Numbered from the stretch's first letter, positions 2,384 through 58,777 are shown. The stretch: DNA of 64,000 nucleotides from Patescibacteria group bacterium (GCA_036726225.1 DAIMCS010000001.1:69776-133775), one strand, 5' to 3'. Numbers and translations: made by a program. Notes: generated by a model from the sequence alone, not told the origin.

Positions 2384-2436
2384 TTCCCAAAAATCAGGAG
2401 CGCAGTCTCAAAGAGACGAGCACGGATTTTTGGGAA
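2384..2436 (+). repeat. Copy A of the hairpin-repeat family: TCCCAAAAATC-AGGAGCGCAG-[TCTC AAAG AGA]-CGAGCACG-GATTTTTGGGA. It lies about 65 nt upstream of tRNA-Ser.
   Basis: Same outer stem and conserved internal strands as the copies at 10808, 21056, 49463, 50001 and 58751. Confidence 0.7.
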
Positions 2437-2503
2437 AAAGGAGTAAACGGCATACTGTAGCAGCCTGCGGAGCAGGATGCGGAAGTGATGCCGATTACGA
2501 CGT

Positions 2504-2593
2504 GGAAGCGTCGCATAGTGGTCTAGTGCACACGCTTGGAAAGCGTGCAACCTGTCAAAGGGTTCGAGGGTTCGAATCCCTCCGCTTCCGCCA
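2504..2593 (+). tRNA. tRNA-Ser (anticodon GGA), type II with a long variable arm
   Basis: Acceptor GGAAGCG/CGCTTCC. 3-bp D stem. Anticodon loop TTGGAAA. Variable arm AACC-TGTCAAAG-GGTT. T arm GAGGG-TTCGAAT-CCCTC. Discriminator G followed by CCA. Confidence 0.85.
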
Positions 2594-2595
2594 AA

Positions 2596-2628
2596 AAATC
2601 CCGACATGATGTCGGGATTTTTTGTTTT
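2596..2628. terminator. Bidirectional intrinsic terminator AATCCCGAC-ATGAT-GTCGGGATT with T/A runs on both sides
   Basis: Perfect 9-bp stem. It sits downstream of the tRNA-Ser 3' end and downstream of the ppsA stop. Confidence 0.75.
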
Positions 2629-5083
2629 ACCTACCAAGTTTATCTTCTACTGCCTTGATGTTTATGGAAGCTTTTAAGACTGTGTCGGGGTTAAGTGATA
2701 TTGAGTCGATCCCTAGGCCTACCAAAAATTCACCAAAGTCCGGGAAGTCAGAAGGCCCCTGGCCGCAAATGCCCACCTTCAGGCCTTTGGCATGGGCCGC
2801 AGGAATTAAAATACCAATTAATTTTTGCACGGCTTTGTTGCGCTCGTTGCCAATGTGAGCAATGAGTTTGCTGTCGCGATCAAGTCCCAAAGTTAACTGC
2901 GTAAGATCGTTTGAGCCAATTGAGAAACCATCAAAAATTTCAGCGAATTCGTCCACCTGTAAAATGTTGGAAGGAATTTCTGCCATAACCCAAATCTCAA
3001 GTCCTTCTATTGGTTCCCCATTTTTTTTGTTTTTACGGGCTTCGGGTGTAATGCGGTTGGTAAGGCCGTGGCGGTTAATAATTTCCACAACTTTCTTCCC
3101 CTCTTCCGGCGTGCGGCAAAACGGCACCATAACACTTAAATTCCAAAGTCCCATTTCTTCGCGCACTTTTTTTACAGCCGCAACTTCCAAAGAAAACGCT
3201 TTTTCAAAACTCGGGTCGTAGTAGCGGCTTGCGCCTCTCCAGCCCATCATTGGGTTTTCTTCAATCGGTTCATAAAGTTTGCCGCCAATTAGGCCGGCAT
3301 ATTCGTTACTTTTGAAATCTGAAAATCTAAGCAACACGTCATACGGATAAAACGCCGCCGCCAGCTGGCCTACGCCGTAAGCAAACTTGTCCAAGTAGTA
3401 TTGCACTTTGTCTTTATAGCCGGCAGTTAATTCATCAATTTGCTGTTTAACGCCCATATCGGTCAATTTCTCGTAGTCTATTAAAGCGTTAGGATGAATT
3501 TTAATAAAATTAGAAATAACAAATTCCACGCGCGCCAAACCTACACCGCGATGAGGCAGGAAAGAATAGTTAAATGCCAGTTCCGGGTCAGCGGCAATCA
3601 TTTTTATGTCTGTCTTTGGGGGCTGGAAGTTAGTTAAGTCTGTCCTGTCCACTCTAAATTTTAAAAGCCCTTCGTAAACTTTCCCCACTTCACCTTCTGC
3701 GCAAGACACTGTAACTTCCATTCCGCCGGAAATTGCCTCTGTGGCATTGCCGGTGCCGACTACAGCAGGAATACCGAGCTCGCGCGAAACTATGGCCGCG
3801 TGAGATGTACGCCCACCCGCGTTAGTTACAATAGCCGAAGCAATTTTCATAATTGGTTCCCAGTCAGGGTCAGTAATTTCTGTAACCAAAACTTCGCCCT
3901 TTTGAAAATCACTTAACTGCGAGGCGTCTTTAATATAGCGCGCTTTGCCCTGGCCAATTTTGGCTCCCACAGCCGCGCCTTTGGCAATAATTTTTCCGGT
4001 TTGTTCCATTACAAACTCTTCCAAAACTTTACCGGTTTTCCTGGCCTGTACTGTCTCGGGGCGGGCTTGGACTACGAACAATTCCTGCATAAAACCGTCG
4101 TAAGCCCATTCAATATCCATTGGCCTTTGGTAATGTTCTTCTATAATTACCGCCCATTTGGCAAGTTTTAAAATTTGGCCGTCGTCCAAAGTAAAGCGGT
4201 GGCGGTCAACCGGGTCTACCCCCTGCTCCGTGGTAGGCTCCACGCCGCCGTGGGCATACACCAACTTTTTTTCCTTGCTGCCCATTCTTTTGCTGATAAT
4301 AGATTTAAAACCTTTTTTGAGTGTAGGTTTAAAAACTTTAAACTCGTCGGGTGTAACCATTCCTTTTACCACAAACTCCCCAAGGCCCCAGGACGAGTTA
4401 ATTAAAACCAAATCTTTAAATCCGCTTTCTGTATCGAGCGTAAAAATAACGCCGCTGGAGCCGCGGTCACTGCGGGCCATTTTTTGTACTGCGACCGATA
4501 AGGCCACGTTGAAGTGGTCGTAATTTTTGTCCTGTCTGTAGGAAATAGCGCGGTTGGTAAACAGGGACGCAAAAGCTTTTTTTATGGACTCCAAAAGCTC
4601 GTGTTCACCGCGGACGTTTAAATAACTTTCCTGCTGTCCGGCAAAAGAAGCGTCGGGCAAATCTTCTGCAGTGGCCGAAGACCTTACAGCCACGTCTAAA
4701 TCTGCTGGCGAAAGTTTAAGTTTATCGCCCAGAGTTTTAAAAGCCGCTAAAATATCTTTTTGTAAATCTTGCGGGAAAGGCACGCTTAAAATTAGCTCCC
4801 TTACCTTTTGGCCACACTCTTCTAACTGTTTAATATTATGGGTATCTAAGCCGGCGAGCGCGTCCCTAATTTTTTGGTCCAAATTATTTTCTTTTACAAA
4901 ATGCCTGTAAGAATGGGCAGAAACCGCAAAACCAAAGGGCACAGAAATTTTTTCGCCCGGGAAAAGTTTGCTTTCCGCGCCGGTTAAATTCCTGTACATT
5001 TCCCCCAAGTTTGCGTTCTTGCCTCCTACCAACCCTACGTCGTCTTTGCCAATTTCGTCGAACCAAAAAATGAATTTATCCAT
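2627..5083 (-). CDS. ppsA: Phosphoenolpyruvate synthase (pyruvate, water dikinase)
   Basis: 818 aa. PEP-utilizing mobile domain GGRTSHAAIVSRELGIPAVVG. N-terminal ATP-grasp-like domain and C-terminal TIM barrel. Confidence 0.85.
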   Translation of the reverse strand: MDKFIFWFDEIGKDDVGLVGGKNANLGEMYRNLTGAESKLFPGEKISVPFGFAVSAHSYRHFVKENNLDQKIRDALAGLDTHNIKQLEECGQKVRELILSVPFPQDLQKDILAAFKTLGDKLKLSPADLDVAVRSSATAEDLPDASFAGQQESYLNVRGEHELLESIKKAFASLFTNRAISYRQDKNYDHFNVALSVAVQKMARSDRGSSGVIFTLDTESGFKDLVLINSSWGLGEFVVKGMVTPDEFKVFKPTLKKGFKSIISKRMGSKEKKLVYAHGGVEPTTEQGVDPVDRHRFTLDDGQILKLAKWAVIIEEHYQRPMDIEWAYDGFMQELFVVQARPETVQARKTGKVLEEFVMEQTGKIIAKGAAVGAKIGQGKARYIKDASQLSDFQKGEVLVTEITDPDWEPIMKIASAIVTNAGGRTSHAAIVSRELGIPAVVGTGNATEAISGGMEVTVSCAEGEVGKVYEGLLKFRVDRTDLTNFQPPKTDIKMIAADPELAFNYSFLPHRGVGLARVEFVISNFIKIHPNALIDYEKLTDMGVKQQIDELTAGYKDKVQYYLDKFAYGVGQLAAAFYPYDVLLRFSDFKSNEYAGLIGGKLYEPIEENPMMGWRGASRYYDPSFEKAFSLEVAAVKKVREEMGLWNLSVMVPFCRTPEEGKKVVEIINRHGLTNRITPEARKNKKNGEPIEGLEIWVMAEIPSNILQVDEFAEIFDGFSIGSNDLTQLTLGLDRDSKLIAHIGNERNKAVQKLIGILIPAAHAKGLKVGICGQGPSDFPDFGEFLVGLGIDSISLNPDTVLKASINIKAVEDKLGR

Positions 5084-5121
5084 AGTTTACTTTAATATTA
5101 AATTAATTATACCAATTTGGC

Positions 5122-6465: not shown

Positions 6466-6496
6466 ATTATTTGTCTTTATAGATCGGTCAGATTAT

Positions 6497-6557
6497 TCTT
6501 CGACCTTGTGGAGAAGATAATCTTACGATATGTTCTCGACAAGCTCGAACAATATTG
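6497..6557. promoter_or_regulatory. Conserved bipartite element CTTCGACCTTGTGGAGAAG ... GTTCTCGACAAGCTCGAACAATATT, upstream of the PHP-ppsA transcription unit
   Basis: Near-identical copy at 8411-8457, upstream of gap. Confidence 0.5.
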
Positions 6558-6603
6558 TCAGACGGACTCCTCGCAATGACGATTATCTGTTATAATACCC
6601 CAT

Positions 6604-7368: not shown

Positions 7369-7370
7369 CC

Positions 7371-8396: not shown

Positions 8397-8410
8397 ACTT
8401 AAATTTTAGT

Positions 8411-8457
8411 CTTCGACCTTGTGGAGAAGCTAAAATTTGTTCTCGACAAGCTCGAAC
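8411..8457. promoter_or_regulatory. Second copy of the CTTCGACCTTGTGGAGAAG ... GTTCTCGACAAGCTCGAACCATATT element, 15-60 nt upstream of the gap start codon
   Basis: 19+19 nt identical to the 6497-6557 copy, with a variable linker. Confidence 0.5.
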
Positions 8458-8461
8458 CATA

Positions 8462-9301: not shown

Positions 9302-9364
9302 ATTGTGTCATTCCGAACGAAGTGAGGAATCCCTTAAAATATTTTAGATGCTTCACTTTATCCA

Positions 9365-9381: not shown

Positions 9382-9406
9382 ATTTTATTTTTTCTCTAGA
9401 AAATTG

Positions 9407-9445: not shown

Positions 9446-9470
9446 TCCGAATTCCAAAAGAGGGGCTAAT

Positions 9471-10646
9471 TCAAGCGTACTGGCGAACCAATTCATGTGC
9501 CACTTCGGCTACACGAATTATTGAACCGTCCGGGCCTGATATGCGATACCGGATGTACTTACCGGTGCCCGAAAACATCAAATCGGTATAGCTCACGATG
9601 CCATGTTGTGCCAAAGCCATCGCGAACTCATACGAATTTTTCCCAGCCCTGAGCCAACCCTCCGGTAAGAGGATATACAAAAAGATACTCGCAAGCCACT
9701 GCGGAACTTCCTTCCATCCAGCTTCATTGAAGAGCTCGAACGTTCTGTCCCCAAGAGTCGTGTAAATCTTGCGGGTCTCTTCAATTGCGTTGGGGCTAGT
9801 CAGACAGCCATTGAGACCGGCAGCAAAACCAACCTGGGCGCTGCGGCTGCCGCCTTCAAATTCGCTGCGATTAATTGCTTTTACCTGACTAACTACGTGC
9901 TGGTCTCCCATAAGGCCTCCGCTCATCAAGCCCGGATACCGCAAAAACTTGGAAGCGGAATTGGTTGTTACAACCTTCCTCTGCAAAGCACCCTGTACCC
10001 GCAAAGCGCTTGCGGGAAAAGCTCCTCGGGTGATGTAGCGATAAGCATCGTCAAACCAGGTAATCGCATTAACCCTTTCACTTATCTCAACTGCTCGTTC
10101 TGTTTCCTGCCAAGTCATAATCTCGCCGGTTGGGTTGTCAACAGGAAGATGAACGAAAACGTCGGCAGCAAAATCACCGACAACTTCTTCATCGAGCCTG
10201 TCAACGTATCGGTCCTTGCCAAATTCGTATTCAACGAAACGGCAGATCCCCCCGGCTTTTTCTATTGTTGCAACGTGCCCACCATAGCATGGCTTACGAA
10301 GAACAAAGACCGGCGGTCGTCCTAACTTATTACGAAGAGCGTCAGCTAGTTGACCAGTAAAGCGCCTTGTACCTGCTGCGCCAATCATAATATTGTCGTC
10401 ATCCAGCTCAACACCGTCAATTTGGCTGGAAAAAACTTGTAGGGCTTCAATGCATTTTTGCAATCCCTTTCTGGGAGCATAGTGATGCATTTTTGGCTGC
10501 CGTTTTGCCTCTATCTCTGCTTCGAGTGTGACTGGATCAGGTTCCCCTTCAGGATTACCCAAGCCACTATCGTGATAGAACTTACCGAAAGCCTCGGCCG
10601 TGCTCTCGATATTAAATCTCATGGCTTCTGGACTCAGTTGAATCAA
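9471..10646 (-). CDS. PLP-dependent aminotransferase (class I/II fold)
   Basis: NPTG motif and TNSASKFL (SxSK PLP-lysine motif). GC content clearly higher than neighbours. Confidence 0.65.
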   Translation of the reverse strand: MIQLSPEAMRFNIESTAEAFGKFYHDSGLGNPEGEPDPVTLEAEIEAKRQPKMHHYAPRKGLQKCIEALQVFSSQIDGVELDDDNIMIGAAGTRRFTGQLADALRNKLGRPPVFVLRKPCYGGHVATIEKAGGICRFVEYEFGKDRYVDRLDEEVVGDFAADVFVHLPVDNPTGEIMTWQETERAVEISERVNAITWFDDAYRYITRGAFPASALRVQGALQRKVVTTNSASKFLRYPGLMSGGLMGDQHVVSQVKAINRSEFEGGSRSAQVGFAAGLNGCLTSPNAIEETRKIYTTLGDRTFELFNEAGWKEVPQWLASIFLYILLPEGWLRAGKNSYEFAMALAQHGIVSYTDLMFSGTGKYIRYRISGPDGSIIRVAEVAHELVRQYA

Positions 10647-10807
10647 TTTCTTTCTCCCCTATTTCAAAAATCGTTATTGTCCCTCGTTGAAATTTTTAAA
10701 ATGCCTCAAATTACCCTCTGTTTGGGAGGTAGCGGCACGCGCAAAAATACCAACTAATTCTTGCGCTTACCGCCTAGGCCCCAAAATTTACACCAGAAGA
10801 ATGAGGG

Positions 10808-10980
10808 CTCCCAAAAATCAGGAGCGCAGTCCCGATGACCATCGGGACGAGCACGGATTTTTGGGAATGCGGGGCAATGTCCCGAAGGCTGAAGTGGGCG
10901 AAAAACCTTTCGCACACGTAAGCCGCAGGGACAATTGACCCGCAGTGGCGGGGGCCTAAAAATTTTTGTTTTAGGTCCCC
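10808..10980 (+). repeat. Copy B of the hairpin repeat (10808-10866) plus a ~90-nt structured module homologous (reverse orientation) to the tRNA-Ile and tRNA-Ala 3' flanks. It ends at a tRNA-3'-end-like minihelix GGGGACCUAAAA...UUUUUAGGCCCCCGCCA on the minus strand.
   Basis: Manual alignment: GGGGCAATGTCCCGAAGGCTGAAG...ACGCGTAAGCCG.AG.ATTGACCCG matches the reverse complement of 49928-50000 and 49388-49460. The inner hairpins covary. Confidence 0.65.
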
Positions 10981-11085
10981 ACAACCACTTTCAATCATAC
11001 TTTATCATACAATGTCATACAAAATATTGTCAAAAAACATATTTTGGCTTATGTAAGCCAAAACGATTTGAACAATCCACACCTT

Positions 11086-11817
11086 TTACACCAGCTTTTC
11101 GGCCAGTTTTAAGTCTTCCTGGCTATTTACGCCAATAACTTCACCAGGATCTATGGTCAAATTTACAATATTTTCTCCAACTTCAACCGCTTTCTCTATT
11201 ATGTCGGTCAAATAATATTCTTGTTGTGCATTTTGGTTTTGGATTTTTTCCAAATTTTCCCACAACCACTTGCTGTTGAACATATAAATGCCCGCTATCA
11301 ACTCTTTTATTTCCAGCTCATTCTGCCCGGCGTCTTTGGCTTCAACATTTTTTACAATTTTTCCGTCTTTACGGATTATTCTGCCAAAATTTTTAAACGC
11401 TTCAAATCCCCCTTCAAAATTCGGCACCACGGTTGTAAACAAACTAATGTTGGAATTTTCTTTGTGGTGAAGGGTCATTAATTTTTTTAAACTTTCTGCT
11501 TTTATAAAAGGATGGTCGCCATAGAGAACTAAAATATTTTCTCCGGTGACTTTATGTTTGGCTGCCAGCAAAGCGTGAGCCGTGCCAAGCTGTTTGTCTT
11601 GGATTGCATACAAATAACCGTCTCCCAAAACTTCCCGAACTTTTTGGTACATATACCCCACAACAATAACCGGTTTGGCCAGCTGGTTTATTTTTTCTAC
11701 CTCGTCCAGCAAATGCAAAATCAGCGGCTTATTTTTTAGCATTACCAAAACCTTGGGCACATTTCCGCCCATTCTGGTTCCTTTTCCGGCTGCAAGAATG
11801 ACAATTTGATTCCTCAT
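11086..11817 (-). CDS. Sugar-nucleotide pyrophosphorylase, GlmU N-terminal-domain-like (UDP-GlcNAc pyrophosphorylase family), with no acetyltransferase domain
   Basis: VILAAGKGTRMGGNVPKVL and LGTAHA motifs. 243 aa. Confidence 0.65.
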   Translation of the reverse strand: MRNQIVILAAGKGTRMGGNVPKVLVMLKNKPLILHLLDEVEKINQLAKPVIVVGYMYQKVREVLGDGYLYAIQDKQLGTAHALLAAKHKVTGENILVLYGDHPFIKAESLKKLMTLHHKENSNISLFTTVVPNFEGGFEAFKNFGRIIRKDGKIVKNVEAKDAGQNELEIKELIAGIYMFNSKWLWENLEKIQNQNAQQEYYLTDIIEKAVEVGENIVNLTIDPGEVIGVNSQEDLKLAEKLV

Positions 11818-11875
11818 ACCGCTGATTTGTCGCTGATGAGTACGCCGATTGATAGCCGAACGCTTGAGTCAGCGT

Positions 11876-11896
11876 TATGTCAGCGTACCTATCTGC
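11876..11896. repeat. 21-nt direct repeat GTCAGCGTACCTATCTGCGTC. A second copy (19/21 identical) lies at 12267-12287. The two flank the GNAT gene.
   Basis: Seen directly. Confidence 0.55.
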
Positions 11897-11912
11897 GTCT
11901 CATTCAGCGAAT

Positions 11913-12245
11913 TTAGAAATTAACTCGGTACTCCACTCCCCAGACTTCCAAGCCAAATTTTGCGTAAAATTTTTGCAATTCCGGTTTAGAATTTCTACTC
12001 GTAGCAATGAGCTTATAACAACCTTGTGCTTTTGCTTCGTCAACAGCTCTTTGAACCAGTTGAGACCCTAAACCATGATTTCGGTGCGATTCCTCAACAA
12101 ATACATCTTCCAACAGACCAAAAGGCTCCTTGTGCAATTCGTTTTTTAAAATATAAAGCAAGCACCTGCCCACTACTTTGCCGTCTTCCTGGGCAGTAAT
12201 TTTGATGGCGAAAGTATCTTTTAAAATTTCTTGTTTGAATTCCAT
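11913..12245 (-). CDS. GNAT family N-acetyltransferase
   Basis: HRNHGLGSQLVQRAV acetyl-CoA-binding motif. Confidence 0.7.
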   Translation of the reverse strand: MEFKQEILKDTFAIKITAQEDGKVVGRCLLYILKNELHKEPFGLLEDVFVEESHRNHGLGSQLVQRAVDEAKAQGCYKLIATSRNSKPELQKFYAKFGLEVWGVEYRVNF

Positions 12246-12266
12246 AAATTTTTCAGCGTGGGATCA

Positions 12267-12287
12267 GCGTACCTATCCGCGTGAAAT
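12267..12287. repeat. Second copy of the direct repeat flanking the GNAT gene (ATCAGCGTACCTATCCGCGTG)
   Basis: Seen directly. Confidence 0.55.
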
Positions 12288-12301
12288 CCGCGGTCAAAGG
12301 T

Positions 12302-13261
12302 TTATACTAGTTCCCAAATTAATTTTGAAAGTTTTTTAGAGTCGTGTCGCAGTAAACTTCTGGTTAATTTATCACCGGACTTTTTTTTAAAAATTTGTTC
12401 CGAAAGTAAATCCGCAGCAATAGTTTCGACTGGAGTTTTTGCCAGCTCTTTTACATCCGGCTCAATAAACTTAGATTTTTGTTTAGCGTAGACTTGCAAA
12501 ACTTTTTTGCCAGGACGGCGTTTGTTTACTAAAGCTAGGTCTATTCTACCTTTTAAATACCGCTCCAAAACTTTCACAAAATCGGCAGGTTTATATCCGT
12601 CGCTTTGCCCAAATTTAGTCATAATATTGGTAATTAAGATTTTTTTAGCCCGGGATTTATTAATCGCTTCCGGTATGCCTTTGACTAACAAATTGGGTAA
12701 AGTACTAGTAAATAAGTCGCCCGGACCAAAAATTATTACATCGGCGTTTTTAATTTTTTTCAGGGCTTGTGGGTTTGCCTTCATGCTCGGGCGCAAATTT
12801 AAATTTTTAATTTTAAATTTAAATTTGCCACTTGGCTCATCTATATTATGTTCGCCATGTATCACATGTCCATTTTCTAAAATCGCAGAAAGTTTAGTTG
12901 CTTTAAGAGTTACCGGAATAACCTGACCTTTAACTTTCAAAAATCTGGCAAAATGGGCTATTGCGCGCTCTATACCAAAACGGTATTGATATTGCGCTAG
13001 CGCGACATTCATCACGACATGTCCGTTATCAAATCTGTAAGCCATATTTTCTTTTATGTTTTCCGAAGCGCCTGATAAAGCTAATAAACAAGCGCGAATA
13101 TCGCCGACTGGAACGCCGCCATATTGCTCTCTTAGCCTACCAGTTGAACCGCCATCATCTGCAGTACTAACAACTGCAGATAAATTTACTGGATATTTTT
13201 TCAACCCTACGAGCAGGGTAGAGGTTCCCGTACCGCCCCCGATTATTACAATATTTTTCAT
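12302..13261 (-). CDS. YvcK/CofD (UPF0052) family protein; gluconeogenesis factor / 2-phospho-L-lactate transferase-like
   Basis: N-terminal IVIIGGGTGTSTLL. About 320 aa. Confidence 0.65.
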   Translation of the reverse strand: MKNIVIIGGGTGTSTLLVGLKKYPVNLSAVVSTADDGGSTGRLREQYGGVPVGDIRACLLALSGASENIKENMAYRFDNGHVVMNVALAQYQYRFGIERAIAHFARFLKVKGQVIPVTLKATKLSAILENGHVIHGEHNIDEPSGKFKFKIKNLNLRPSMKANPQALKKIKNADVIIFGPGDLFTSTLPNLLVKGIPEAINKSRAKKILITNIMTKFGQSDGYKPADFVKVLERYLKGRIDLALVNKRRPGKKVLQVYAKQKSKFIEPDVKELAKTPVETIAADLLSEQIFKKKSGDKLTRSLLRHDSKKLSKLIWELV

Positions 13262-20870: not shown

Positions 20871-20984
20871 AGGCAGCCACCTACTTTTGCACATACATGC
20901 GTATGACTATCATTGGCCCGTGCGCGTTTTACTTCTGAGTTCGGGATGGGATCAGGTAGAGCCGCGCTGGAAATGCCACCCTCG
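20871..20984 (-). rRNA. rrf: 5S ribosomal RNA (ends approximate)
   Basis: The reverse complement contains CCTGATCCCATCCCGAACTCAGAAGTAAAACGC and ...AGTAGGTGGCTGCC, matching the 5S loop C and helix I regions. Confidence 0.65.
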
Positions 20985-21055
20985 TCGTACTTTATTCCGG
21001 GCTTTCGTCCCGATTTATAATCGGGACTCTCGCCCTCCATAAAGTACTCCTCTTT

Positions 21056-21107
21056 CCAAAAAATCCGTACTCGCTCGCTTACGCTCGCTCCGTTCCTGAT
21101 TTTTTGG
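21056..21107 (-). repeat. Copy C of the hairpin repeat, in the 23S-5S spacer: CCAAAAAATC-AGGAACGGAG-[CGAGCG TAAG CGAGCG]-AGTACG-GATTTTTTGG. A related hairpin GTCCCGATTTATAATCGGGAC lies at 21009-21029.
   Basis: Seen directly. Same orientation as the rRNA. Confidence 0.65.
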
Positions 21108-21453
21108 AATCTTGGATAAACCTTTATGGAATAAAATTCAACGAGGATGCACTTAGTTTATGGTCTTATTGCGTTTACTGAATTTTGCGTGGCTATAAAG
21201 AATGCTGCGGTTACAAGCAAAATTAACAAAATAACGCCATAAACCTTTAAGTGTTGTCTCATTGTATATACAAATTAACAAATGGCACAAATGAAACGAA
21301 TAACCACAAATCTGTTAATATCAGTTTCATTTGTGCATCCGTATATTTGTATCTTACACACTCACAAATTGCTAGTCAAAAAAGTTAAAATTTTCGATTG
21401 ATTAGTACTGCTCGGCTGAACACATTACTGTGCTTACACCTGCAGCCTATAAA

Positions 21454-21518
21454 TCAGTAAACAGTTCACAGTACGCAGTATACAGTATTGCTACTGTCTA
21501 CTGTTTCCTGTTTACTGA
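21454..21518 (-). repeat. Palindromic hairpin insertion TCAGTAAACAG...CTGTTTACTGA in the 23S 3' domain
   Basis: Absent from the E. coli-type sequence between conserved blocks. Confidence 0.5.
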
Positions 21519-21865
21519 GCACTGATGAAATACGCGGTAGTCTTCCGCGAATCTGTATTATGTATTGCTACATAAAACGAAACCTAGTTTTGTAGACGGC
21601 TTCACGCTTATATGCATTCAGCGCTTATCCAAACTAGACCTAGCTACCCCGCCATGCCCTTGACAGGACAACGGGTACACCAGAGGTCTATGCATCTCGG
21701 TCCTCTCGTACTAGAGATGCGACTACTCAAGTTTCGAACACCCACAGCAGATAAGGACCAAACTGTCTCACGACGTTTTGAACCCAGCTCGCGTACCACT
21801 TTAATATGCGAACAGCATAACCCTTGGGAGCTTCTTCACCCCCAGGATGTGATGAGCCGACATCG

Positions 21866-22362
21866 TACATAATCCATACTTTCGTATGGGGCAGACTATA
21901 TCTTGTTCTTGTCAGCGGTTTTAGGATCTGTCTCCATAACCTGCTTTTTTTTGACAAGACTCGGCGTATTATGGAAACAAGTATTAGGTATTATGTATAA
22001 CGTATTAAGCGCTGCAGACTGCAGTCGCCTTATACCTTATACTATATACTTTATACCTGCTTACATCTTCCCTTTCGGGTCAGTCGTTACGGGGTCAATG
22101 ACTAGTATTACGTATTATGTATAAAGTATTAGGTGCTGCAGTTGCAGTCACGTTATACCTTATACGTTATACTTTATACTACCCACGACTTCCCACGGTG
22201 TTGCCGGTTACTTCTTGTTTCCACTTAAGTAACTACGGGTTCACCGTTATAAGCCGAATTTATTTTCTTAGAATTATTATCACTCCGACTATTACGTCGG
22301 AGCAGACGGAACTAAGACACTTAGGTATGAGATTGCTCTCAAAGCACCCCGATTGATGGTTA
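21866..22362 (-). other. About 500-nt insertion in 23S domain V. It sits between ...GGTTTGGCACCT and CGATGTCGGCTC, next to the peptidyl-transferase centre. Its AT-rich interior contains two large palindromic hairpins built from GTATAA/GTATTA hexamers around GCTGCAG..CTGCAG loops.
   Basis: Conserved exon-like blocks were identified on both sides. The insert does not end in G, so it is not an obvious group I intron. Confidence 0.6.
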
Positions 22363-23103
22363 AGGTGCCAAACCCTCTCGTCGATGTGGACTCTTGGAGA
22401 GGATCAGCCTGTTATCCCTAGAGTAACTTTTATCCGTTGGGCTTTGCGTCTTCCACTCGAACGCATCGGATCACTAACTTCCACTTTCGTGCCTGCGCGG
22501 GTCGCCGCCCTTGCAGTCAAGCATGCTTATGCGTTTGCACTATCGGCATGATTTCCATCCATGCCTAGCATACCTTAATAAACGCCTCCGTTACCATTTA
22601 GGAGGCAACCGCCCCAGTTAAACTACCCACGAGCCACTGTCCCAAAGTAGGTTAGACTTTGGTTAGCAATTTCACTTCTACAGGGTGGTATTTCACCTGT
22701 TGCCTCCATTTCAGCTGGCGCCGAAACTTCAAAGGCTCCCACCTAGGCTAAACAATAAAAATAAAATTGCAATGACACGCTATAGTAAAGCTTCATAGGG
22801 TCTTTCCGTCTTGCTGCGGGTAGACGGCATCTTTACCGCCATTGTAAGTTCATCGGAATGTTCGTTAAGACAGTCCTCTACTCGTTATGCCATTCGTGCG
22901 GGTCGCAACTTACGCGACAAGGAATTTCGCTACCATAGGACAGTTATAGTTACTGCCGGCGTTCATCAGGGCTTGGCCAACCACCTTGCGGCGGTCGGTT
23001 TAACCTTCTGACACTGGCCAGGCATCAGCCCGTATACATCAGCTTAACGCTTTAGCACGGACCTAAGTTTTTGGTAAACAGTCGGGAGAGGTCTTTTGTT
23101 GCA

Positions 23104-23417
23104 GCCTAAGTCTTTACTTTTTGGAAGTGATGCTGTTGATAAACCCATTTTTCATATGTTAGAAAATGGATTAGTATATGAATAGCATCGCTGATCGTAA
23201 ATGAAAGAAAGGGAGGATCCAAGATGACGCCAACGGTATCAATTATGGTCGGAATAGCGCTGTGTCTATTCGCAATCACCGTTCCGGTGGTTCCTGTTCT
23301 GTGGGACACGCTCAAGGAACGCTAATGCGTTTGATGGCTGTCGAACGGGGTTGCTTCGCAATCCCGTTTTTTCTTTCTTTAAAATCTTTTTCACTTACAA
23401 AAAGTAAAGACTTAGGC
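23104..23417 (-). other. 314-nt insertion in the 23S helix-63 region, bounded by a perfect 20-bp inverted repeat GCCTAAGTCTTTACTTTTTG / CAAAAAGTAAAGACTTAGGC (IVS-like)
   Basis: The flanks match GGCAAAA...GG and GGCTGCAAC...GACGCCTG...GGAAGGTTAA of 23S. Confidence 0.6.
23224..23325 (+). CDS. Candidate 33-aa hydrophobic peptide MTPTVSIMVGIALCLFAITVPVVPVLWDTLKER. It is encoded antisense to the 23S rRNA, inside the IR-bounded insertion.
   Basis: GGGAGG SD 7 nt upstream of the ATG. Intrinsic terminator AACGGGGTTGC-TTCG-CAATCCCGTT followed by TTTTTT at 23344-23372. Confidence 0.3.
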   Translation: MTPTVSIMVGIALCLFAITVPVVPVLWDTLKER

Positions 23418-24087
23418 AAGGTATATACCTAAGGTACACCTGCTTTTTTGCCGAGTTCCTTAACGAACATTGCTCCGGACGCCTTGGGATTCTCTCCCCA
23501 TCCACCTGTGTCGGTTTACGGTACGGACACCATTAAACATGATTACGACGGTTTTCTTGGCACCTTGATTCACACTAATTCCCGTTGCCAGGTTTCTTTA
23601 TACTCTCGAGCTTGAAACCGGCTGCAAGTCCTTTTGGGACCGACAGACAGTAATGAGTTGCGGATTTGCCAACAACTCACCCTACAAGTACAACAACGCA
23701 AATAGTCAGATTACGCTAGTGTTATCATGATGCGTCACGCCTTAAATAATTTAATGGTGGTTATGGAATATCAACCATATTTTCCATCGGGTGAATCCCT
23801 TGGGACCCACTCTTAGGATCGACTAACCCAGGGACGACGATCGTTGCCCTGGAAACCTTGGATATTCGGCGAAGAGGATTCTCACCTCTATATATATTAC
23901 TTATTCCAACATTCTTACTTGTACACTGTCCAGCGCCGCTTACGCATACGCCTTCAGCCTGTGTACAACACTCCTCTACCACCAATGCAATGTTACTCGC
24001 ATTGATCCACGTCTTCGGCACCTAGCTTAGCCCCTATATATTGTCGGCGCAGGATCGCTTGACCAGTGAGCTGTTACGCTTTCTTTA

Positions 24088-24124
<37 letters not shown>

Positions 24125-24517
24125 GGGCAATCCCACATCCTTTGCACTATAGCTAGGATTTGGGGGCCTTAGACGGTGGTGTGGATTCTTCTCCATTTGT
24201 CTCGTGAAGCTTAGACCTCACGGACTGACTGCCGAGATCTTGACCAAAAGAATTCGGAGTTTGGTTGGAGCCTACCGATTGCTCAGCAGGTTTCCATTCA
24301 GTGCTCTACCTCTTTTGGGAACTCTCGACGCTAGCCCTAAAGCTATTTCGAGGAGAACCAGCTATCACCCGGTTCGATTGGAATTTCTCCCCTACGCACA
24401 GCTCATCCCCTATTTTTGCAGCAATAGTGGGTTCGGACCTCCCGTTGCTTTTACACAACGTTCATCCTGGCCATGCGTAGCTCACGCGGGTTTCGGGTCT
24501 AACTCATGCGACATATA

Positions 24518-24603
24518 AGTAGGTATAAAGTATTACGTATTAAGTATTAGGTATCAGGGCAAATGCCGAGATACGTTATACCTTATACTTCATACTTTAT
24601 ACA
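24518..24603 (-). repeat. AT-rich palindromic hairpin insertion in 23S (GTATAAAGTATTACGTATTAAGTATTAGG...ATACCTTATACTTCATACTTTATAC), the same family as 25212-25296 and the pair inside 21866-22362
   Basis: Seen directly. Confidence 0.55.
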
Positions 24604-24721
24604 AACTTATTACGGACTATTCATCCTCGCTTTCACTACACTTTCGTCTTTGTTAAGACTTAAGTAAGCCGCATAAGATTAACTCGTTGGATCATTCTTC
24701 AATAGGCACGCGGTTAGCCAT

Positions 24722-24816
24722 CACAGATACACTGATTTACACTGATTTCGCAGATATATATAGATTTAATCTATATATAAATCTGTGTTATCTGCGTCCA
24801 TCAGAGTATCTGTGAT
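24722..24816 (-). repeat. Palindromic hairpin insertion in 23S (CACAGATACACTGATTT...AGATATATATAGATTTAATCTATATATAAATCT...TATCTGTG)
   Basis: Seen directly. Confidence 0.5.
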
Positions 24817-24878
24817 CGGGCCTTCCACTCCTTGTAAGTATACGGTTTCAGATACTATTTCATTCCCCTTCCGGGGTG

Positions 24879-24919
<41 letters not shown>

Positions 24920-25211
24920 ATATGAGTATTTAGCCTTAGATCTTAGTCGACCTGATTTCCGACCAGATTTCTCGTGTCTGGTCGTACTCAAGAAAAAGTT
25001 AGGAAATTGCATGGTTTTTCGCGATACGGGACTATCACCCTCTTTGGTCCGCCGTTCCAGGCGTGTTCTGCTAAACAGCAAACATAATTCCCTGCCCCTT
25101 TACAGCGGGGCAATAACTTCCACTTATAACACCTAATTAGCAACGACTGTAATCTTTAATTCTCCGCCTTGCGGCTTTGAAAACACTAATTAAGTTTGGG
25201 CTAATAAAGCA

Positions 25212-25296
25212 AGTATAAAGTATTATGTATAACGTATTACGCATCCGGGCAAAAAGCCAAGATACTTTATACCTTATACTCTATACTTTATACAAA
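25212..25296 (-). repeat. AT-rich palindromic hairpin insertion near the 23S 5' domain (GTATAAAGTATTATGTATAACGTATTACG...TTTATACCTTATACTCTATACTTTATAC)
   Basis: Seen directly. Near-identical arms to 24518-24603. Confidence 0.55.
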
Positions 25297-25591
25297 CTCT
25301 ATATACTTCCGCTTTCGCTCGCCACTACTAACGGAATCTCGTTTCGTATTGCTACGAAATTGATTTATTTTCCACGTGCTACTGAGATGTTTCACTTCGC
25401 ACGGTTCCCGCATACTATACCCCACGGCATAGCAGCACATACTCTTCCAGTATGTGGGTTTCCCCATTCGGACATCCACGGATCAAAGCTCTGTTGCCAG
25501 CTCCCCGAGGCTTTTCGTAGGCTCAAACGTCCTTCATCGGCTCATATTACCTAGGCATCCACCGTATACCCTTAACTTATTTTAACTTTTA

Positions 25592-49126: not shown

Positions 49127-49307
49127 CGGGCTTTTTTTGTTATTTTGGTTTCAAAAAGTGAAAGGAATCTAATTAATAATAATATAATTTACGAGTATTG
49201 TCAAAATTTCGGATATTTGGTAAAATTTGATGGAATTGGTTTAAAAGGCTCCCAAAAAATCAAGCAACTTTTTAGGAAAAAAGTACTACCACAAATCGGG
49301 ACAACGC

Positions 49308-49382: not shown

Positions 49383-49387
49383 CACAA

Positions 49388-49516
49388 CAGGTCAATCGTT
49401 CTTTCGGCTTCCGCGTCCTGAAAAATTCAGGCCGCTGCAGCCTGCAGAACGTTGCCCTTCATCACAAAAATCCGTGCTCGATTCGCTTTCGCGAATCTGC
49501 GCTCCTGATTTTTGTG
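49388..49516 (+). repeat. Conserved structured tRNA 3'-flank module, copy 1: GGTCAATCGTTCTTTCGGCTTCCGCGTCC-[CTGAAAAATTCAG]-GCCGCTGCAGCCTGCAGAACGTTGCCC... It ends in hairpin-repeat copy D at 49463-49516.
   Basis: Aligns base for base with 49928-50076 and with the reverse complement of 10808-10942. Confidence 0.7.
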
Positions 49517-49581: not shown

Positions 49582-49803
49582 ATGAGATTTCTTTTTGCCC
49601 CACTATTATTCGCATTAGGCGTGCTGTGCATGAAGTATTCTGTATTTATTACCGACCAATTCACGGGACGAATTGATATGGCGGAAAAAATTTTTGGCGC
49701 CGGGATGGGCGCAGGCACATATACTTGGTGGAAACTTTTTGGTTTAGGCATGTGTATTTTAAGTCTTTTGTGGATTACCGGTTATTTAAAATTTGGAATT
49801 TAA
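49582..49803 (+). CDS. Possible small two-TM membrane protein between tRNA-Ile and tRNA-Ala (no SD; doubtful)
   Basis: ORF track only. Confidence 0.2.
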   Translation: MRFLFAPLLFALGVLCMKYSVFITDQFTGRIDMAEKIFGAGMGAGTYTWWKLFGLGMCILSLLWITGYLKFGI

Positions 49804-49849
49804 AAATCCTCCGCAAAAACGAGGAGCGCAGTTCCGACAAGTCTGACGA

Positions 49850-49925: not shown

Positions 49926-49927
49926 CG

Positions 49928-50076
49928 GGTCAATCATTCTTACGGCTTACGCGTCCCCGAAAGTCGGGGCCGCTTCAGCCTTCAGAATGTTGCCCCTTAT
50001 CCCAAAAACCCCTGCCTGCCGGCAGGCAGGCGTACTCGTCCCAATGGAAATTGGGACTCCGTTCCTGGTTTTTGGG
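49928..50076 (+). repeat. Conserved structured tRNA 3'-flank module, copy 2. Its inner hairpin CCCCGAAAGTCGGGG covaries with the copy-1 hairpin. It ends in hairpin-repeat copy E (50001-50076), which carries an extra GC hairpin CCTGCCTGCCGGCAGGCAGG.
   Basis: Seen directly. Confidence 0.7.
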
Positions 50077-50098: not shown

Positions 50099-50122
50099 AC
50101 CGCCTAATGGGCGGTTTTTTGT
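50099..50122 (+). terminator. Intrinsic terminator ACCGCC-TAATG-GGCGGT followed by TTTTTTG
   Basis: Seen directly. Confidence 0.7.
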
Positions 50123-50131
50123 TATAATTGA

Positions 50132-53089: not shown

Positions 53090-53191
53090 CTTTACGGAGT
53101 ACGGAGAGAACATTACGGATATACGAATTTTAAAAACCACCGGTTTAAGGTGGTTTTTCCGTATATCCGTATGAGTCCGTATTCCGTAAAG
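53090..53191. terminator. About 100-nt extended imperfect palindrome between the convergent guaA and guaB genes, with the central terminator AAAAACCACC-GGTTTAA-GGTGGTTTTT
   Basis: Outer arms CTTTACGGAGTACGGA / TCCGTATTCCGTAAAG and ACGGATATACG / CGTATATCCGT. Confidence 0.6.
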
Positions 53192-54286
<1,095 letters not shown>

Positions 54287-54445
54287 TTAGTAATTAATGA
54301 ATCCTGAAGAGATAAAAAATGTTATTACTTTTCAAAAACGATTAATAACAAAATGAATCTCTAACGGGATCATATTGAAAGGATTCTACCACAACACCTA
54401 CTTCTATGTCAACCGACTTTATAACTTTACAAACTTTAAGAACTT

Positions 54446-55897: not shown

Positions 55898-56044
55898 GCC
55901 TTAGTAATATACTACAAAAATAAAAAGCGCGCCAATGCCTGTATAGGCACTGGCGCACGAATGTGTACTGCTTAAAGCCCCGGACAAAATTTTCTCCATT
56001 GCTTTTTTGCCTCCTGCCAAGCGTTCCTGTTCTGCTCACCGGAG

Positions 56045-56233
56045 CTACTTTTGTTTCTTAATTTTCCAGTGAGAAAACAAATACTTGTGCCCGCACCTAG
56101 GACATTGCCACGCTCCTTTGACAGGGTCAGCGTCTCGTCCATGGAACATTTCAACTATGAGGTGACAATGCAGGCACATTGTAGGATTGCTTAAAACTTT
56201 ATCCGGTTTAGGTTTCTTTTCCCCGATTCCCAT
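56045..56233 (-). CDS. Small zinc-ribbon protein (62 aa)
   Basis: CLHCH...CPRCGH. AAGGAGGGATT SD. Confidence 0.5.
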   Translation of the reverse strand: MGIGEKKPKPDKVLSNPTMCLHCHLIVEMFHGRDADPVKGAWQCPRCGHKYLFSHWKIKKQK

Positions 56234-56339
56234 AATCCCTCCTTAAGGGATTTAACTATATATCAAAATCTCTCCAAAATCAACAACAAAAAAGCCGCCC
56301 CTTTTAGGCGGCTTACTTAAAAACTTTTAAAAAACTAAC

Positions 56340-57596
56340 TTACCCTGCCCAAAACAGCAGGGCGGCAAAAATTACTACAAAACTGCTGTTTGCAATTAAA
56401 GAAAGATGCTGGACGTGGCGCTTTATTGCAATGGCTAAAATTAACACGGAAAGCAGGCCAGCAATAAAAATTAAATACACTTTGGCTTCAAAACTTTTGG
56501 GGTCAAAAGTCCGGTTTAGAAAAGTTGCGTACGTGGGCGGCGTACTCCCCACGGTATGGTAATTCTGCTGGATGCTGGCCGCAAAGTCAGCCAGCTGCAG
56601 CTGCACACTTTCTCCTTTTATGTCGAAAGCTTTAATTGTTACTTCTTTGTTGCTTTGGGTCAAGCTGCCCAATACCATTTGCCCTACCCAAACATTGCCT
56701 TCCCTGGGCGAAAGCATAACCGCCTGCTGTCCAAAATAGGCAATAACTTTTACGGCCGGGCCTTCGACTTGGGCGGTAATTTCCACATTGTCCCCCAAAA
56801 TTTTTACTTCGCCGCTTTTAACATTTAAAACTTTTAGGATGGGCTGTCGGTTTTCGCTTTGCCCTAAAGCAGAGCCCTGGGCAGGAGCAATATTATTTAT
56901 TGGCGGCGGCACAGCCTCAACCTGCACTACCGTAGGCTCCCCCTCAAGCGCCACTTGCTGCTCTATAGGCGTGCCGAACATTTGGACGACAAAAATCGCC
57001 GCATGCCCCTGGTATTGCCCTTGCGAAATACCAATGCCAATTTCTTCAAAATTTTTATTAAGGATATTGGCTTTATGGCCCGGACTATTCATCCACGCCT
57101 CTTCCACGTCTTCACTTTCCGTAAAATTTACGGCCAAATTCTCCCCGGCCATAATGTAGGTATAACCGGCGGCCTTAATAAATTCCCACGGACTTTTGCC
57201 GTCCGGCGTCAAATGGGAAAAATAGCCTTTTGCCAGCATATCGTCGGCTTTAGCCTGGGCTGCAATATCTAAAACCGAATTTTGGCTTAAAGCGGTTAAG
57301 CCAAAAGCTTTGCGGGATTCATTGGTTAAATTAATAATATTTTGCGCGGTGATGGCGGAGGAAAAAGCTGTCGCCGCCGGGCTTAAAGAAAGCGCGCTTA
57401 AGGTAAAAATTTTAACCCCAACTAAGAGGGCGGACATTAAAGCCAGGTTCCTGTGGCCCAAAATATGGGGATGGTAATTGTTGCGCGGGTGGGGTATGAA
57501 ATGGTCATGCAAATGCGCAGCAAAAACGCCTAAAGGAGCAAACGCTCTTTTTAGGCTTCTGTTTTGAAAGCCAATTAACTGCGCCACATATTCCAT
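56340..57596 (-). CDS. CAP/SCP (PR-1-like) domain protein with TM segments
   Basis: MAGENLA...WMNSPGHKANIL CAP signature. Confidence 0.6.
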   Translation of the reverse strand: MEYVAQLIGFQNRSLKRAFAPLGVFAAHLHDHFIPHPRNNYHPHILGHRNLALMSALLVGVKIFTLSALSLSPAATAFSSAITAQNIINLTNESRKAFGLTALSQNSVLDIAAQAKADDMLAKGYFSHLTPDGKSPWEFIKAAGYTYIMAGENLAVNFTESEDVEEAWMNSPGHKANILNKNFEEIGIGISQGQYQGHAAIFVVQMFGTPIEQQVALEGEPTVVQVEAVPPPINNIAPAQGSALGQSENRQPILKVLNVKSGEVKILGDNVEITAQVEGPAVKVIAYFGQQAVMLSPREGNVWVGQMVLGSLTQSNKEVTIKAFDIKGESVQLQLADFAASIQQNYHTVGSTPPTYATFLNRTFDPKSFEAKVYLIFIAGLLSVLILAIAIKRHVQHLSLIANSSFVVIFAALLFWAG

Positions 57597-57689
57597 TTTG
57601 ATTTTTTCCGCCGAAATTCAGCGGTTTTTGTTTTGGTTTCTTTAAATGAAAATCTTCCAATTATTTTGATTGGAAGATTACTTTATCTA

Positions 57690-57725
57690 TATGTATTATA
57701 GCACACTTTAAATTTTTTGTCTACC
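57690..57725 (-). promoter_or_regulatory. Promoter with the extended -10 AAAGTGTGCTATAAT for the CAP-domain gene. A 5' UTR hairpin CTTCCAATTATTTTGATTGGAAG lies at 57655-57680.
   Basis: The same AAGTGTGCTATA(A/T)T block recurs at 58135-58150 (minus) and 59297-59313 (plus). Confidence 0.5.
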
Positions 57726-57900
57726 CCGTTACGATTTCTCTGATAAAATTTTTAAATAAATTCCTTTTTGCAACAATCGTAGTGACCTTCTGACAGCGAG
57801 GTAACAGAAATTGGTACGGGGTCTACCCCCGGCGCAGAATTTTAGACTTCAATAAAAAAATTGTGATTCTGCCGGACGTTAATGTGGATGCGGTAAAAAA

Positions 57901-58092
57901 TTACTCTTTGTGTCCTGAAATGTTGGCAAAAGCCGGGACATCACTTTCAGTCGTGTCGCTTAAAACAATGTAGCCAACTAAAGAAATTCCGGTTACCACC
58001 AAAAAAACAATTGTCCACACAAACCAGCGGGCGTCGTAACCGTTTTGCGCTCCCGACACACTTACCGGATTGACTCCGTTATAAGTTCCCAT
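57901..58092 (-). CDS. Small membrane protein (63 aa)
   Basis: ORF track. Single TM helix. Own copy of the TGCTATAAT promoter at 58135-58150. Confidence 0.35.
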   Translation of the reverse strand: MGTYNGVNPVSVSGAQNGYDARWFVWTIVFLVVTGISLVGYIVLSDTTESDVPAFANISGHKE

Positions 58093-58159
58093 AATTTTAC
58101 AAGGTTAATTTTATATTTATTTTAGCTTACTGTATTATAGCACACTTTTTTAAAATTTG

Positions 58160-58585
58160 CTAAAGTGGATTATTTTCTGACTTATGTTCAATGTTAATGT
58201 CCAAAATAAATAAAATGATGTTTAAGACATCGACCACCAGGCAGTACTGGCAAACTTTTTTAAGGACAAAAAATTGGATGCCGAGCAGGACCAAGGAAGA
58301 CAAAGCGCCAAAACCGAGCAAAAAAGTCAGTAATTTACGCCAATTTGGGTAGTGATTGGCCATTAAAGCGCTTATAATTACGCCAAAAAAGTAAGCCGAG
58401 CCCCAAACTGAAAGCGGCAAACCAAGGAAAGATGAATATTTGCTGTTTAATACCACTTCGCAGCCTCCGGTTATGTCGCAAGGAACGGCAATGCCTAAAT
58501 AATGGCTAACAGCCAAATAAACACTAACCCCAAAACCGACTACCGCTAAAATTACAATAATATCGTATTTATGTCTTTTATACAT
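58160..58585 (-). CDS. Vitamin K epoxide reductase (VKOR) family protein; DsbB-like disulfide oxidoreductase
   Basis: Four TM helices. CDITGGC (CxxxxC loop cysteines) and the CQYC active site. Confidence 0.6.
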   Translation of the reverse strand: MYKRHKYDIIVILAVVGFGVSVYLAVSHYLGIAVPCDITGGCEVVLNSKYSSFLGLPLSVWGSAYFFGVIISALMANHYPNWRKLLTFLLGFGALSSLVLLGIQFFVLKKVCQYCLVVDVLNIILFILDINIEHKSENNPL

Positions 58586-58750
58586 AAAAATATATTAGCA
58601 TAAAAAAACTCCCCCAAAAAGGAGGAGTTTAAATCGTAAGATTTATAGCGCCGAGGGGACGGATTCATTCCGTGCCCGAGGCAACTTTGCGAAAAAGATA
58701 GGATTCGCCCGAAGGGCGAATGTTTGGAAAGAAAAACAGTTTTCAAGGGT

Positions 58751-58777
58751 TCCCAAAAATCCAATGGATTTTTGGGA
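58751..58777 (-). terminator. Minimal copy F of the hairpin repeat, TCCCAAAAATCC-AATG-GATTTTTGGGA, in the 3' UTR of the RRM gene; probable terminator
   Basis: Followed on the minus strand by the T-rich CTGTTTTTCTTTCC. Confidence 0.55.

Follow-up and report, generated by a model that had tools for sequence, protein, structure and literature searches.

Inverted repeats that flank stable RNAs, or that recur between genes, are familiar from several systems. In rRNA operons, complementary leader and trailer sequences enclose the mature RNA in stems for RNase III; hairpins of the phage T7 R1.1 type combine a lower stem, an internal loop and an upper stem; archaeal bulge-helix-bulge stems are formed by inverted repeats around stable RNAs; bidirectional terminators are stems flanked by A and U tracts; and repetitive extragenic palindromes (REP), bacterial interspersed mosaic elements (BIME) and Correia elements are short, multi-copy, imperfect intergenic palindromes that show compensatory change, are co-transcribed with their neighbours and vary in presence among related genomes. 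Correia hairpins are known RNase III substrates. Here we describe a family of structured elements, built on a hairpin that we call hairpin A, in a 64-kb stretch of the genome of a Patescibacteria group bacterium (GCA_036726225.1, DAIMCS010000001.1:69776-133775; hereafter the window, on which all window counts are based). The family is real, lies outside Rfam, and is larger and more organised than the initial annotation of this stretch had described.

The element resembles each of these systems in part. Like the stems of rRNA operons it can bring complementary leader and trailer copies around a mature RNA, and like the T7 hairpins it consists of lower stem, internal loop and upper stem. Unlike the rRNA-operon stems, it is one sequence family found at many unlinked tRNA, 5S, 16S and glmS loci, it can work locally as a hairpin even where no partner copy is present, and it is coupled to a second conserved module (module B) that ends exactly at the first nucleotide of the mature RNA (+1). 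It shares the palindromic, multi-copy and variably present character of REP, BIME and Correia elements; unlike REP and BIME, no copy has a 5′ GTAG at its foot and no REP-associated (RAYT) or other Y1 transposase was found among the 20 window open reading frames (ORFs) scanned, and unlike REP and Correia elements its placement and orientation are tied to the ends of stable RNAs, its junction is fixed, and it comes in distinct leader and trailer subtypes. As in bidirectional terminators, A and U tracts flank the stem, and a minimal copy of the family shares its arms with the tRNA-Ser terminator; unlike in terminators, the A and U tracts of hairpin A pair with each other, leaving no free U tract, and the internal loops are asymmetric and conserved.

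Hairpin A recurs beside stable-RNA genes

Six loci in the window carry the outer stem of hairpin A, five as full copies (E1–E5) and one in minimal form (E6), just where they had been annotated (Table 1). The arm pattern CAAAAAYC...GRTTTTTG falls at five distinct sites, against 0.01–0.02 expected by chance over two gap ranges, the 10-mer AGGAGCGCAG occurs exactly four times, and the full copies fold with z-scores of −4.9 to −6.5 relative to shuffled sequence. The covariance model of hairpin A (R1), a type of model that the initial annotation had proposed to build, recovered from the window with filters off only the full copies E1–E5 (40–83 bits), plus E6 and a half-copy in the tRNA-Ile leader.

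E6 keeps the exact 11-nt arms of the family, a match that chance would rarely produce, about 0.03 exact occurrences of one 11-mer being expected over 64 kb and both strands; loops, module B and a U tract are all absent from it. Its assignment as the terminator of the RRM-protein gene is not supported, given the missing U tract and the presence of two canonical terminator-like hairpins further downstream on the minus strand (58721-58703 and 58630-58606). Because a genuine trailer in a metagenomic relative (L168) begins with a comparably minimal hairpin A, E6 is probably a reduced family member in the 3′ untranslated region (UTR) of that gene rather than its terminator.

A metagenome search, with a pattern in which most loop bases were fixed and the 3′ arm, outermost arm and inner stem were free, matched 69 loci. 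Twenty are real, with a perfectly matching 3′ arm, and the remainder are chance matches in coding DNA. Two of the loci (L170 and L190) belong to the same organism as the window, and the others display at least three arm types (GGTTCCC, GGCCCCC and GGTCCCCG). Across 20 distinct copies from the window and the metagenomes, 93% of cells in the three helices of hairpin A are paired and 13 of 22 pairs have changed on both sides, values reached in none of 500 shuffles and far above those of slid-partner controls, although several metagenomic copies may share one population, and the changes counted are therefore not all independent of one another. The covarying helices proposed at the outset are thereby borne out. 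By contrast, the conserved blocks once taken to be single-stranded are predicted to form a covarying 2-bp helix together with G.A pairs, the helix changing from G:C to A:U in E3; E5, which was omitted from the 20-copy count, carries the same change, which may reflect a single event. Taken alone, hairpin A has 22 pairs, amounting to some 22–25 quasi-continuous base pairs, and it holds an AGGA/ACG motif one base shorter than the corresponding motif of module B. The tandem G.A arrangement (AGGA/GACG) might recall a kink-turn, a candidate that we rejected on reading the sequences because no 3-nt bulge adjoins it.

Searches for other relatives were negative. A looser pattern (CAGGARCGSAG..CGAGYACG) gave 120 matches in genome contigs, all by chance and none with an outer stem; viral contigs yielded no match to hairpin A and five to the trailer pattern, all in unrelated coding DNA, leaving no phage link for the family in these scans. 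Rfam 15, run over the whole window at gathering thresholds, matched only 23S, 5S and three tRNAs; at E ≤ 10 on E2, tRNA-Ile/Ala and the E1 flanks, and at E ≤ 0.001 on the 16S-intron region of metagenomic locus L155, the element attracted only noise (mir-1323, for one, reached 17.5 bits where its gathering score is 98), the E3 flank having been scanned at gathering thresholds only. In these scans, no known RNA family, all self-cleaving ribozyme classes included, gives a credible match to the element, and full-text literature searches returned no description of it, in keeping with the original failure to recognise a named motif.

Placement beside stable-RNA genes lies far above chance, with 22 of 24 distinct copies flanking a tRNA, a tRNA remnant, 5S or 16S. 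The association first proposed thus holds for most copies without being exclusive, one copy preceding the protein-coding gene glmS.

Leader units end at mature 5′ ends

Annotated as a stand-alone element, hairpin A is instead the first module of a unit of ~130–150 nt that comprises hairpin A, an AGGRGC box and hairpin B, and module B is equally conserved and covarying. Upstream of genes the order is a sigma-70-like promoter, ~20–30 nt, hairpin A, R-AGGAGC, a long hairpin B, GACGN and the mature RNA; −35 and −10 boxes lie 20–30 nt upstream of hairpin A in metagenomic leaders as well (for example L129, L144 and L152). In 10 of 10 tRNA leaders, representing eight isotypes (Ser, Ala (two genes), Lys (two genes), Gly, Asn, Glu, Met and Arg), GACGN (or CACGCGN) ends exactly at tRNA +1. 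A leader unit also precedes 5S, in the window (E3) and at two metagenomic loci (L142 and L164). E3 does lie in the 23S–5S spacer, as annotated, at a distance from 5S of ~72 nt rather than the ~55 nt given; its module B has the loops GGA/GGA and GAGA/GAAA, a GGGC/GCCC helix and a terminal hairpin. The truncated form noticed before tRNA-Ala is likewise genuine, a minimal leader with the same sequence as the hairpin A interior as far as CGAG.

One plan describes the folds of all 14 leader and all 8 trailer B modules: a closing stem leads into a 3x3 GNA/GNA loop and a helix of ~4 bp, beyond which come another purine-rich loop, GNA/GNA or GNRA/GNRA, and the terminal hairpin. In leader modules AGGA and GACG are invariant and the adjoining pairs covary (GC/GC, AG/CU, GU/AC, AC/GU). 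We read AGGA and GACG as closing hairpin B in a predicted clamp, a G-C pair plus tandem G.A, one nucleotide before +1. The two 3-nt loops of module B, a 4-bp helix apart, recall the archaeal bulge-helix-bulge, a reading that we rejected: unlike opposed bulges, these are symmetric 3x3 loops closed by G.A, and the organism is a bacterium.

Two metagenomic loci extend the leader unit beyond tRNA and 5S. At L155, a 16S gene (10467-12516, minus strand) is interrupted after ...CUCUGU (E. coli position ~516) by a group I intron (11656-12067), and ~180 nt of hairpin A and module B stand between the P9 hairpin of the intron and 16S exon 2 (...GACGA|GCCAGCAGC). The intron cannot splice directly to exon 2, because its last base is A, and the arrangement suggests that this 16S rRNA may be fragmented. 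We rejected the idea that the unit is a peripheral domain of the intron: only at L155 does it adjoin one, all other copies having no intron, and there it follows P9 and ends ...GACGA, with a last base that is not G. At L173, a complete tRNA-Ser-type leader unit (590-730) ends in GACGA followed by AUAUG, the start of glmS, 2–3 nt before the start codon. Judged from this sequence, glmS would have a near-leaderless mRNA, or else a Shine-Dalgarno box that might be bridged to the AUG across hairpin B. A coding or Shine-Dalgarno reading of AGGAG...AUG was rejected for the family, given that in L165 the AUG is directly followed by UAG and that E3 sits within an rRNA spacer.

Trailer units are transcribed as the complement

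Downstream of genes the unit is inverted. Read in the orientation of hairpin A, trailers consist of hairpin A, AAGGGGCAAY, hairpin B, AUUGACCCG and the complement of a tRNA, usually from its CCA end (E5, L139, L143, L150, L168 and L176 are examples); the E4 unit ends GACCUG, followed by UUG and then the tRNA-Ile complement. Trailer B modules have 25 predicted consensus pairs, 16 of them with compensatory change. Adjoining module B of E2, positions 10942-10985 form a hairpin ending GCCAC on the minus strand, which may plausibly be a displaced tRNA 3′ fragment or remnant; a free tRNA-like minihelix was rejected here because the predicted fold has its CCA base-paired.

Leaders share a transcript with their tRNA or 5S and are read in the AGGAGC sense, whereas the E2, E4 and E5 units are inverted in their transcripts. 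With the reverse complement being transcribed at three of the five full copies, the initial inference of selection on one RNA structure is too simple. For E2, the minus-strand promoter upstream is at 11033-11004. The intrinsic terminator beyond E5 is the only plus-strand terminator there, and pilM has its own minus-strand promoter, located downstream of tRNA-Ile, which led us to reject the idea that E4 and E5 serve the minus-strand pilM operon as leaders. The promoters of pilM (minus strand, TTGACA-17-TATTAT) and tRNA-Ile (plus strand, TTGTCA-17-TGnTAAAAT) are divergent and back to back within 49176-49226. Between tRNA-Ile and tRNA-Ala lies an ORF for a hydrophobic product of 73 amino acids (49582-49803, plus strand), which appears to be co-transcribed with both tRNAs.

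Leader and trailer copies are predicted to pair

Folding of whole precursors joins the minimal tRNA-Ala leader to the distal half of E5 through 33 long-range pairs and, around the tRNA-Gly of L139, a degenerate leader copy to a trailer copy through 39. The retention of the loop blocks in antisense trailers makes sense if complementarity to leader copies is required. The 23S gene of the window is itself bracketed by a perfect 19-bp classical leader–trailer processing stem (25696-25678 with 21380-21362); therefore the organism does use leader–trailer stems. A flanking duplex of ~20 bp or more, or an equivalent local hairpin, is predicted at tRNA-Ala, at the L139 tRNA-Gly and in hairpin A alone, and not at tRNA-Ile. 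In leader hairpins, G.U pairs are present in the transcribed sense, which counts in favour of a role in maturation.

Going by the observed structures and the way they covary, by where they lie with respect to promoters, mature ends and terminators, and by the complementarity of leaders and trailers, we favour, at a probability of roughly 50%, the view that the units are lineage-specific, cis-acting precursor-maturation modules, each combining an RNase III-type stem with a clamp that sets the 5′ end; the known kind to which the family would belong is that of precursor processing stems or repeated structured flanks. Hairpin A alone, or the duplex of 33–39 bp between a leader copy A and a trailer copy A′, its complement as RNA, would serve as a double-strand-specific (RNase III-type) cleavage site freeing the precursor, in a manner comparable to precursor release in rRNA operons. 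Module B with its AGGA/GACG clamp would then present or protect the 5′ end for final trimming, which for tRNAs would fall to RNase P.

A number of observations weigh against this reading. Cleavage and the enzymes responsible are entirely inferred, and loop conservation is partly built in, the loop bases having been fixed by the retrieval pattern. Many tRNAs on the same contigs have no unit, and the unit is dispensable, given its complete absence from the orthologous tRNA-Ile/Ala loci of four related genomes. Neither E1 nor E3 is matched by a trailer copy, the minimum-free-energy fold of the tRNA-Ile precursor shows no long-range pairing, and in two cases spacers of 3 and 20 nt separate trailer from CCA. 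Finally, trailer B modules fold better in the AGGAGC sense, apparently the untranscribed one, in 8 of 8 cases, by 3.5–8.6 kcal/mol in seven and by 0.1 kcal/mol in L150, with 5 G.U pairs in that sense against at most 2 A.C pairs, a strand asymmetry that would not be expected if the trailers acted solely as RNA of the tRNA-sense strand.

Alternative explanations

The main rival, which we consider improbable though well short of negligible, is that hairpin A is a selfish repeated palindrome (a REP-like element or a miniature inverted-repeat transposable element (MITE), comparable to the Correia elements of Neisseria) that has spread into the flanks of stable RNAs and is tolerated there, any effect on RNA being a by-product. 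Compensatory change had been taken to exclude DNA palindromes and repeats; it does not do so, and related tRNA-Ile/Ala loci exist without the element. Both the placement preference and the compensatory changes whose absence would have marked a generic repeat are present, and a REP- or MITE-like origin nonetheless stays in contention. The outer stem is an 11–12-bp inverted repeat, and the presence/absence polymorphism of Correia elements is mirrored here: at four syntenic pilM/tRNA-Ile/tRNA-Ala/guaA loci (L200–L203, ~72–74% PilM identity) the tRNAs are present and R1 finds no match. Five full copies stand within 64 kb, near-identical at unlinked loci and in both orientations relative to transcription; the variant loops are common to a leader (E3) and a trailer (E5); mini-palindromes are nested within the family (CCTGCCTGCCGGCAGGCAGG in E5, L176 and L163, and hairpins of the form UCCCGA..UCGGGA at many points); E2 is a place where short-read contigs break; and trailers, in both stability and G.U bias, follow the strand of the element instead of that of the host transcript. 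AGGG before hairpin A and A(R)AGGRG after it recur and could represent a target duplication, although the two do not match exactly and are missing from E4, L144 and L173.

Set against a selfish origin is first the non-random placement of the family. A REP or MITE would be expected regardless of the neighbouring gene, and a stable RNA is instead the neighbour of 22 of the 24 copies, with orientation set exactly by the side of the gene, sense upstream and antisense downstream, and independent of replication direction, the sign of GC skew being the same throughout the window. Ten tRNAs whose 5′ sequences are unrelated all join their leaders with single-nucleotide precision, the B modules of leaders differ from those of trailers and both types are conserved across three lineages, the pre-5S location is conserved across lineages, and the ORFs scanned for a transposase without success include the neighbours of the element. 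The maturation-module and selfish-repeat readings are in any case compatible, as a functional cassette can spread by recombination.

A second possibility, which we regard as a long shot, is that AGGAGC, hairpin and GACGN form a portable, sequence-independent 5′-end signal that would be cut one nucleotide past the clamp, by itself if it is a new ribozyme or otherwise by a dedicated endonuclease. Such a cassette would create the 5′ end of any RNA placed downstream, and hairpin A would hold an internal copy of the site (CGAG|CACG). It would account for a motif that ends exactly at the first nucleotide of ten tRNAs, 5S and 16S exon 2, the last after a group I intron unable to splice to it, and that stops 2–3 nt before the glmS AUG; it would also suit the identity of the hairpin A interior with the minimal tRNA-Ala leader up to CGAG, and the invariance of AGGA and GACG while adjacent pairs covary. 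The tRNA junctions, however, are explicable by RNase P alone, the 5S boundary is resolved to ~2 nt only, and the 16S and glmS cases are one observation each; no known ribozyme family in Rfam matches, and in trailers the motif lies in the non-transcribed sense.

We think it very unlikely that hairpin A is a transcription signal, whether for intrinsic termination or attenuation or, close to the promoters of stable-RNA operons, for antitermination in the manner of put or boxB. Its outer stem is an A-tract/U-tract pair, as in bidirectional terminators, identical A6/U6 arms are found in the tRNA-Ser terminator (2592-2624), and leader copies sit just past promoters. Yet no hairpin A is followed by a U tract; terminator scans flag none of E1–E4 and E6, and flag E5 only through its inserted GC palindrome, which GGUUUUUGGG follows; a terminator between a promoter and its own tRNA would be counter-productive; and module B, the exact junction and the inverted trailers would all be left unaccounted for.

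Equally faint is the prospect that the element is bound by some abundant RNA-binding protein, perhaps a ribosomal one or the RRM protein of the window, that coordinates or protects stable-RNA precursors. Conserved purine-rich loops (tandem G.A and GNA/GNA) are typical of protein recognition, and minimal copy E6 lies in the 3′ UTR of the RRM gene itself; E6, however, is entirely without loops, and antisense copies would show different loops. A replication-oriented, IS200/IS605-like single-stranded-DNA element was rejected, with GC skew of one sign while orientation switches with the neighbouring gene, and no transposase nearby among the ORFs scanned.

Genomic surroundings

PilM homologues place the organism in Patescibacteria, its named relatives being Candidatus Doudnabacteria at ~71–72% identity. 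In L200–L203 the 73-amino-acid ORF is kept at the same position (...TDQFSGKIDMAEKYLG...TWWKLFG...). A repeat, ccttcgctaaagctacgg / gtagctttagcgaagg, recurs beside tRNAs in relatives without hairpin A, and in L188, L200, L202, L163 and L143 tRNA genes are often preceded by partial duplicates of their own 5′ ends or interrupted by insertions. In two independent short-read assemblies of this organism (L123 and L125) a contig begins 187 nt before the aminotransferase gene, at a point inside E2 (window ~10833), as expected for a multi-copy repeat.

Smaller hairpins recur within and around the family. The 20-nt GC palindrome CCTGCCTGCCGGCAGGCAGG, or a near-identical variant, occupies the same point of hairpin A in E5 and L176 and also occurs within the tRNA-Ser leader of L163, constituting a second mini-palindrome family. 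A hairpin (G)UCCCGA-loop-UCGGGA(C) is found at 10830-10847, 21005-21028 and 2600-2618, and at many loci, in the roles of hairpin A inner stem, module B tip and tRNA-Ser terminator, and the AUUCGC..GCGAAU of E4 appears again at 58703-58721. Hairpin tips appear to be exchanged as modules.

The 23S gene (21381-25587, minus strand) spans 4207 nt, compared with a 2925-nt model, and has several insertions, among them ~168 nt near model position 273 and ~90 nt near 583, none containing the hairpin family. With no 16S gene and no spacer tRNA accompanying it, the rRNA genes of the organism are unlinked. Its leader carries a direct repeat of ~75–80 nt (25970-25892 and 25670-25592, minus strand; 300 nt apart) that includes GAUGAGGGCAACGGAAGG..., resembling the trailer-module box AGGGGCAAC, and a strong promoter, TTGACA...TAGAAT, lies near 26290-26260.

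Table 1. Units of the hairpin family and adjoining features in the window. Strands of family members are given for the orientation with AGGAGCGCAG on the 5′ side.
Feature	Position	Strand	Remarks
Promoter-like site, TCGACA-18-TGnTAATAT	2323..2352	+	~25–30 nt upstream of E1
E1 hairpin A	2384-2436	+	Sense form, tRNA-Ser leader; R1 74.9 bits
E1 module B	2437..2503	+	Opens AAAGGAGUAA, long hairpin with GNA-type loops; ends AUUACGACGU at tRNA-Ser +1
tRNA-Ser(GGA)	2504..2593	+	Followed by A-tract/U-tract terminator hairpin 2592-2624
E2 hairpin A	10808-10866	+	Transcribed as complement, 5′ UTR of minus-strand aminotransferase gene; R1 82.9 bits
E2 module B, trailer type	10868..10941	+	GGGGCAAU ... AAUUGACCCG
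E3 module B	20984..21055	-	Opens AGAGGAGUAC; ends GUACGACGA ≤2 nt from 5S 5′ end
E3 hairpin A	21056-21107	-	Sense form, 23S–5S spacer; variant loops AGGAACGGAG/CGAGUACG; R1 65 bits
Promoter-like site of tRNA-Ile / ORF73 / tRNA-Ala transcript	49198..49226	+	
Half-copy of hairpin A (CUCCCAAAAAAUC arm)	49247-49278	+	tRNA-Ile leader; R1 15.9 bits
E4 module B, trailer type	49385..49462	-	Starts 3 nt past tRNA-Ile CCA, opposite strand
E4 hairpin A	49463-49516	-	Transcribed as complement, tRNA-Ile trailer; R1 74.5 bits
Minimal tRNA-Ala leader	49820..49849	+	AGGAGCGCAG, short hairpin, then GACGA directly before +1
E5 module B, trailer type	49926..50000	-	Begins immediately after tRNA-Ala CCA, opposite strand
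E5 hairpin A	50001-50076	-	Variant loops; palindrome CCTGCCTGCCGGCAGGCAGG inserted at 50011-50030; R1 40 bits
Intrinsic terminator closing tRNA transcript	50099..50115	+	Beyond E5
E6	58751-58777	.	Outer stem only, 3′ UTR of RRM-protein gene; R1 28.6 bits

Implications

Patescibacteria, also known as the Candidate Phyla Radiation, have a pared-down machinery for ribosome biogenesis and RNA processing, unlinked rRNA genes, and rRNA genes rich in insertions; to our knowledge, how their stable RNAs mature is largely unknown. For metagenome assembly the family carries a caution, in that contigs break inside the element. If clamp-directed cleavage were true, the unit could serve as a compact natural part for making RNA ends and would be a 3′-cutting insulator, and it would provide a maturation route partly independent of RNase P, cutting out tRNAs, 5S, intron-interrupted 16S fragments and a near-leaderless glmS mRNA. 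More broadly, the element supplies defined substrates for RNase III, RNase P or another nuclease and bears on the release of intron-interrupted 16S rRNA, and a shared modular leader and trailer system that ends at mature 5′ ends offers a testable handle on RNA maturation in Patescibacteria.

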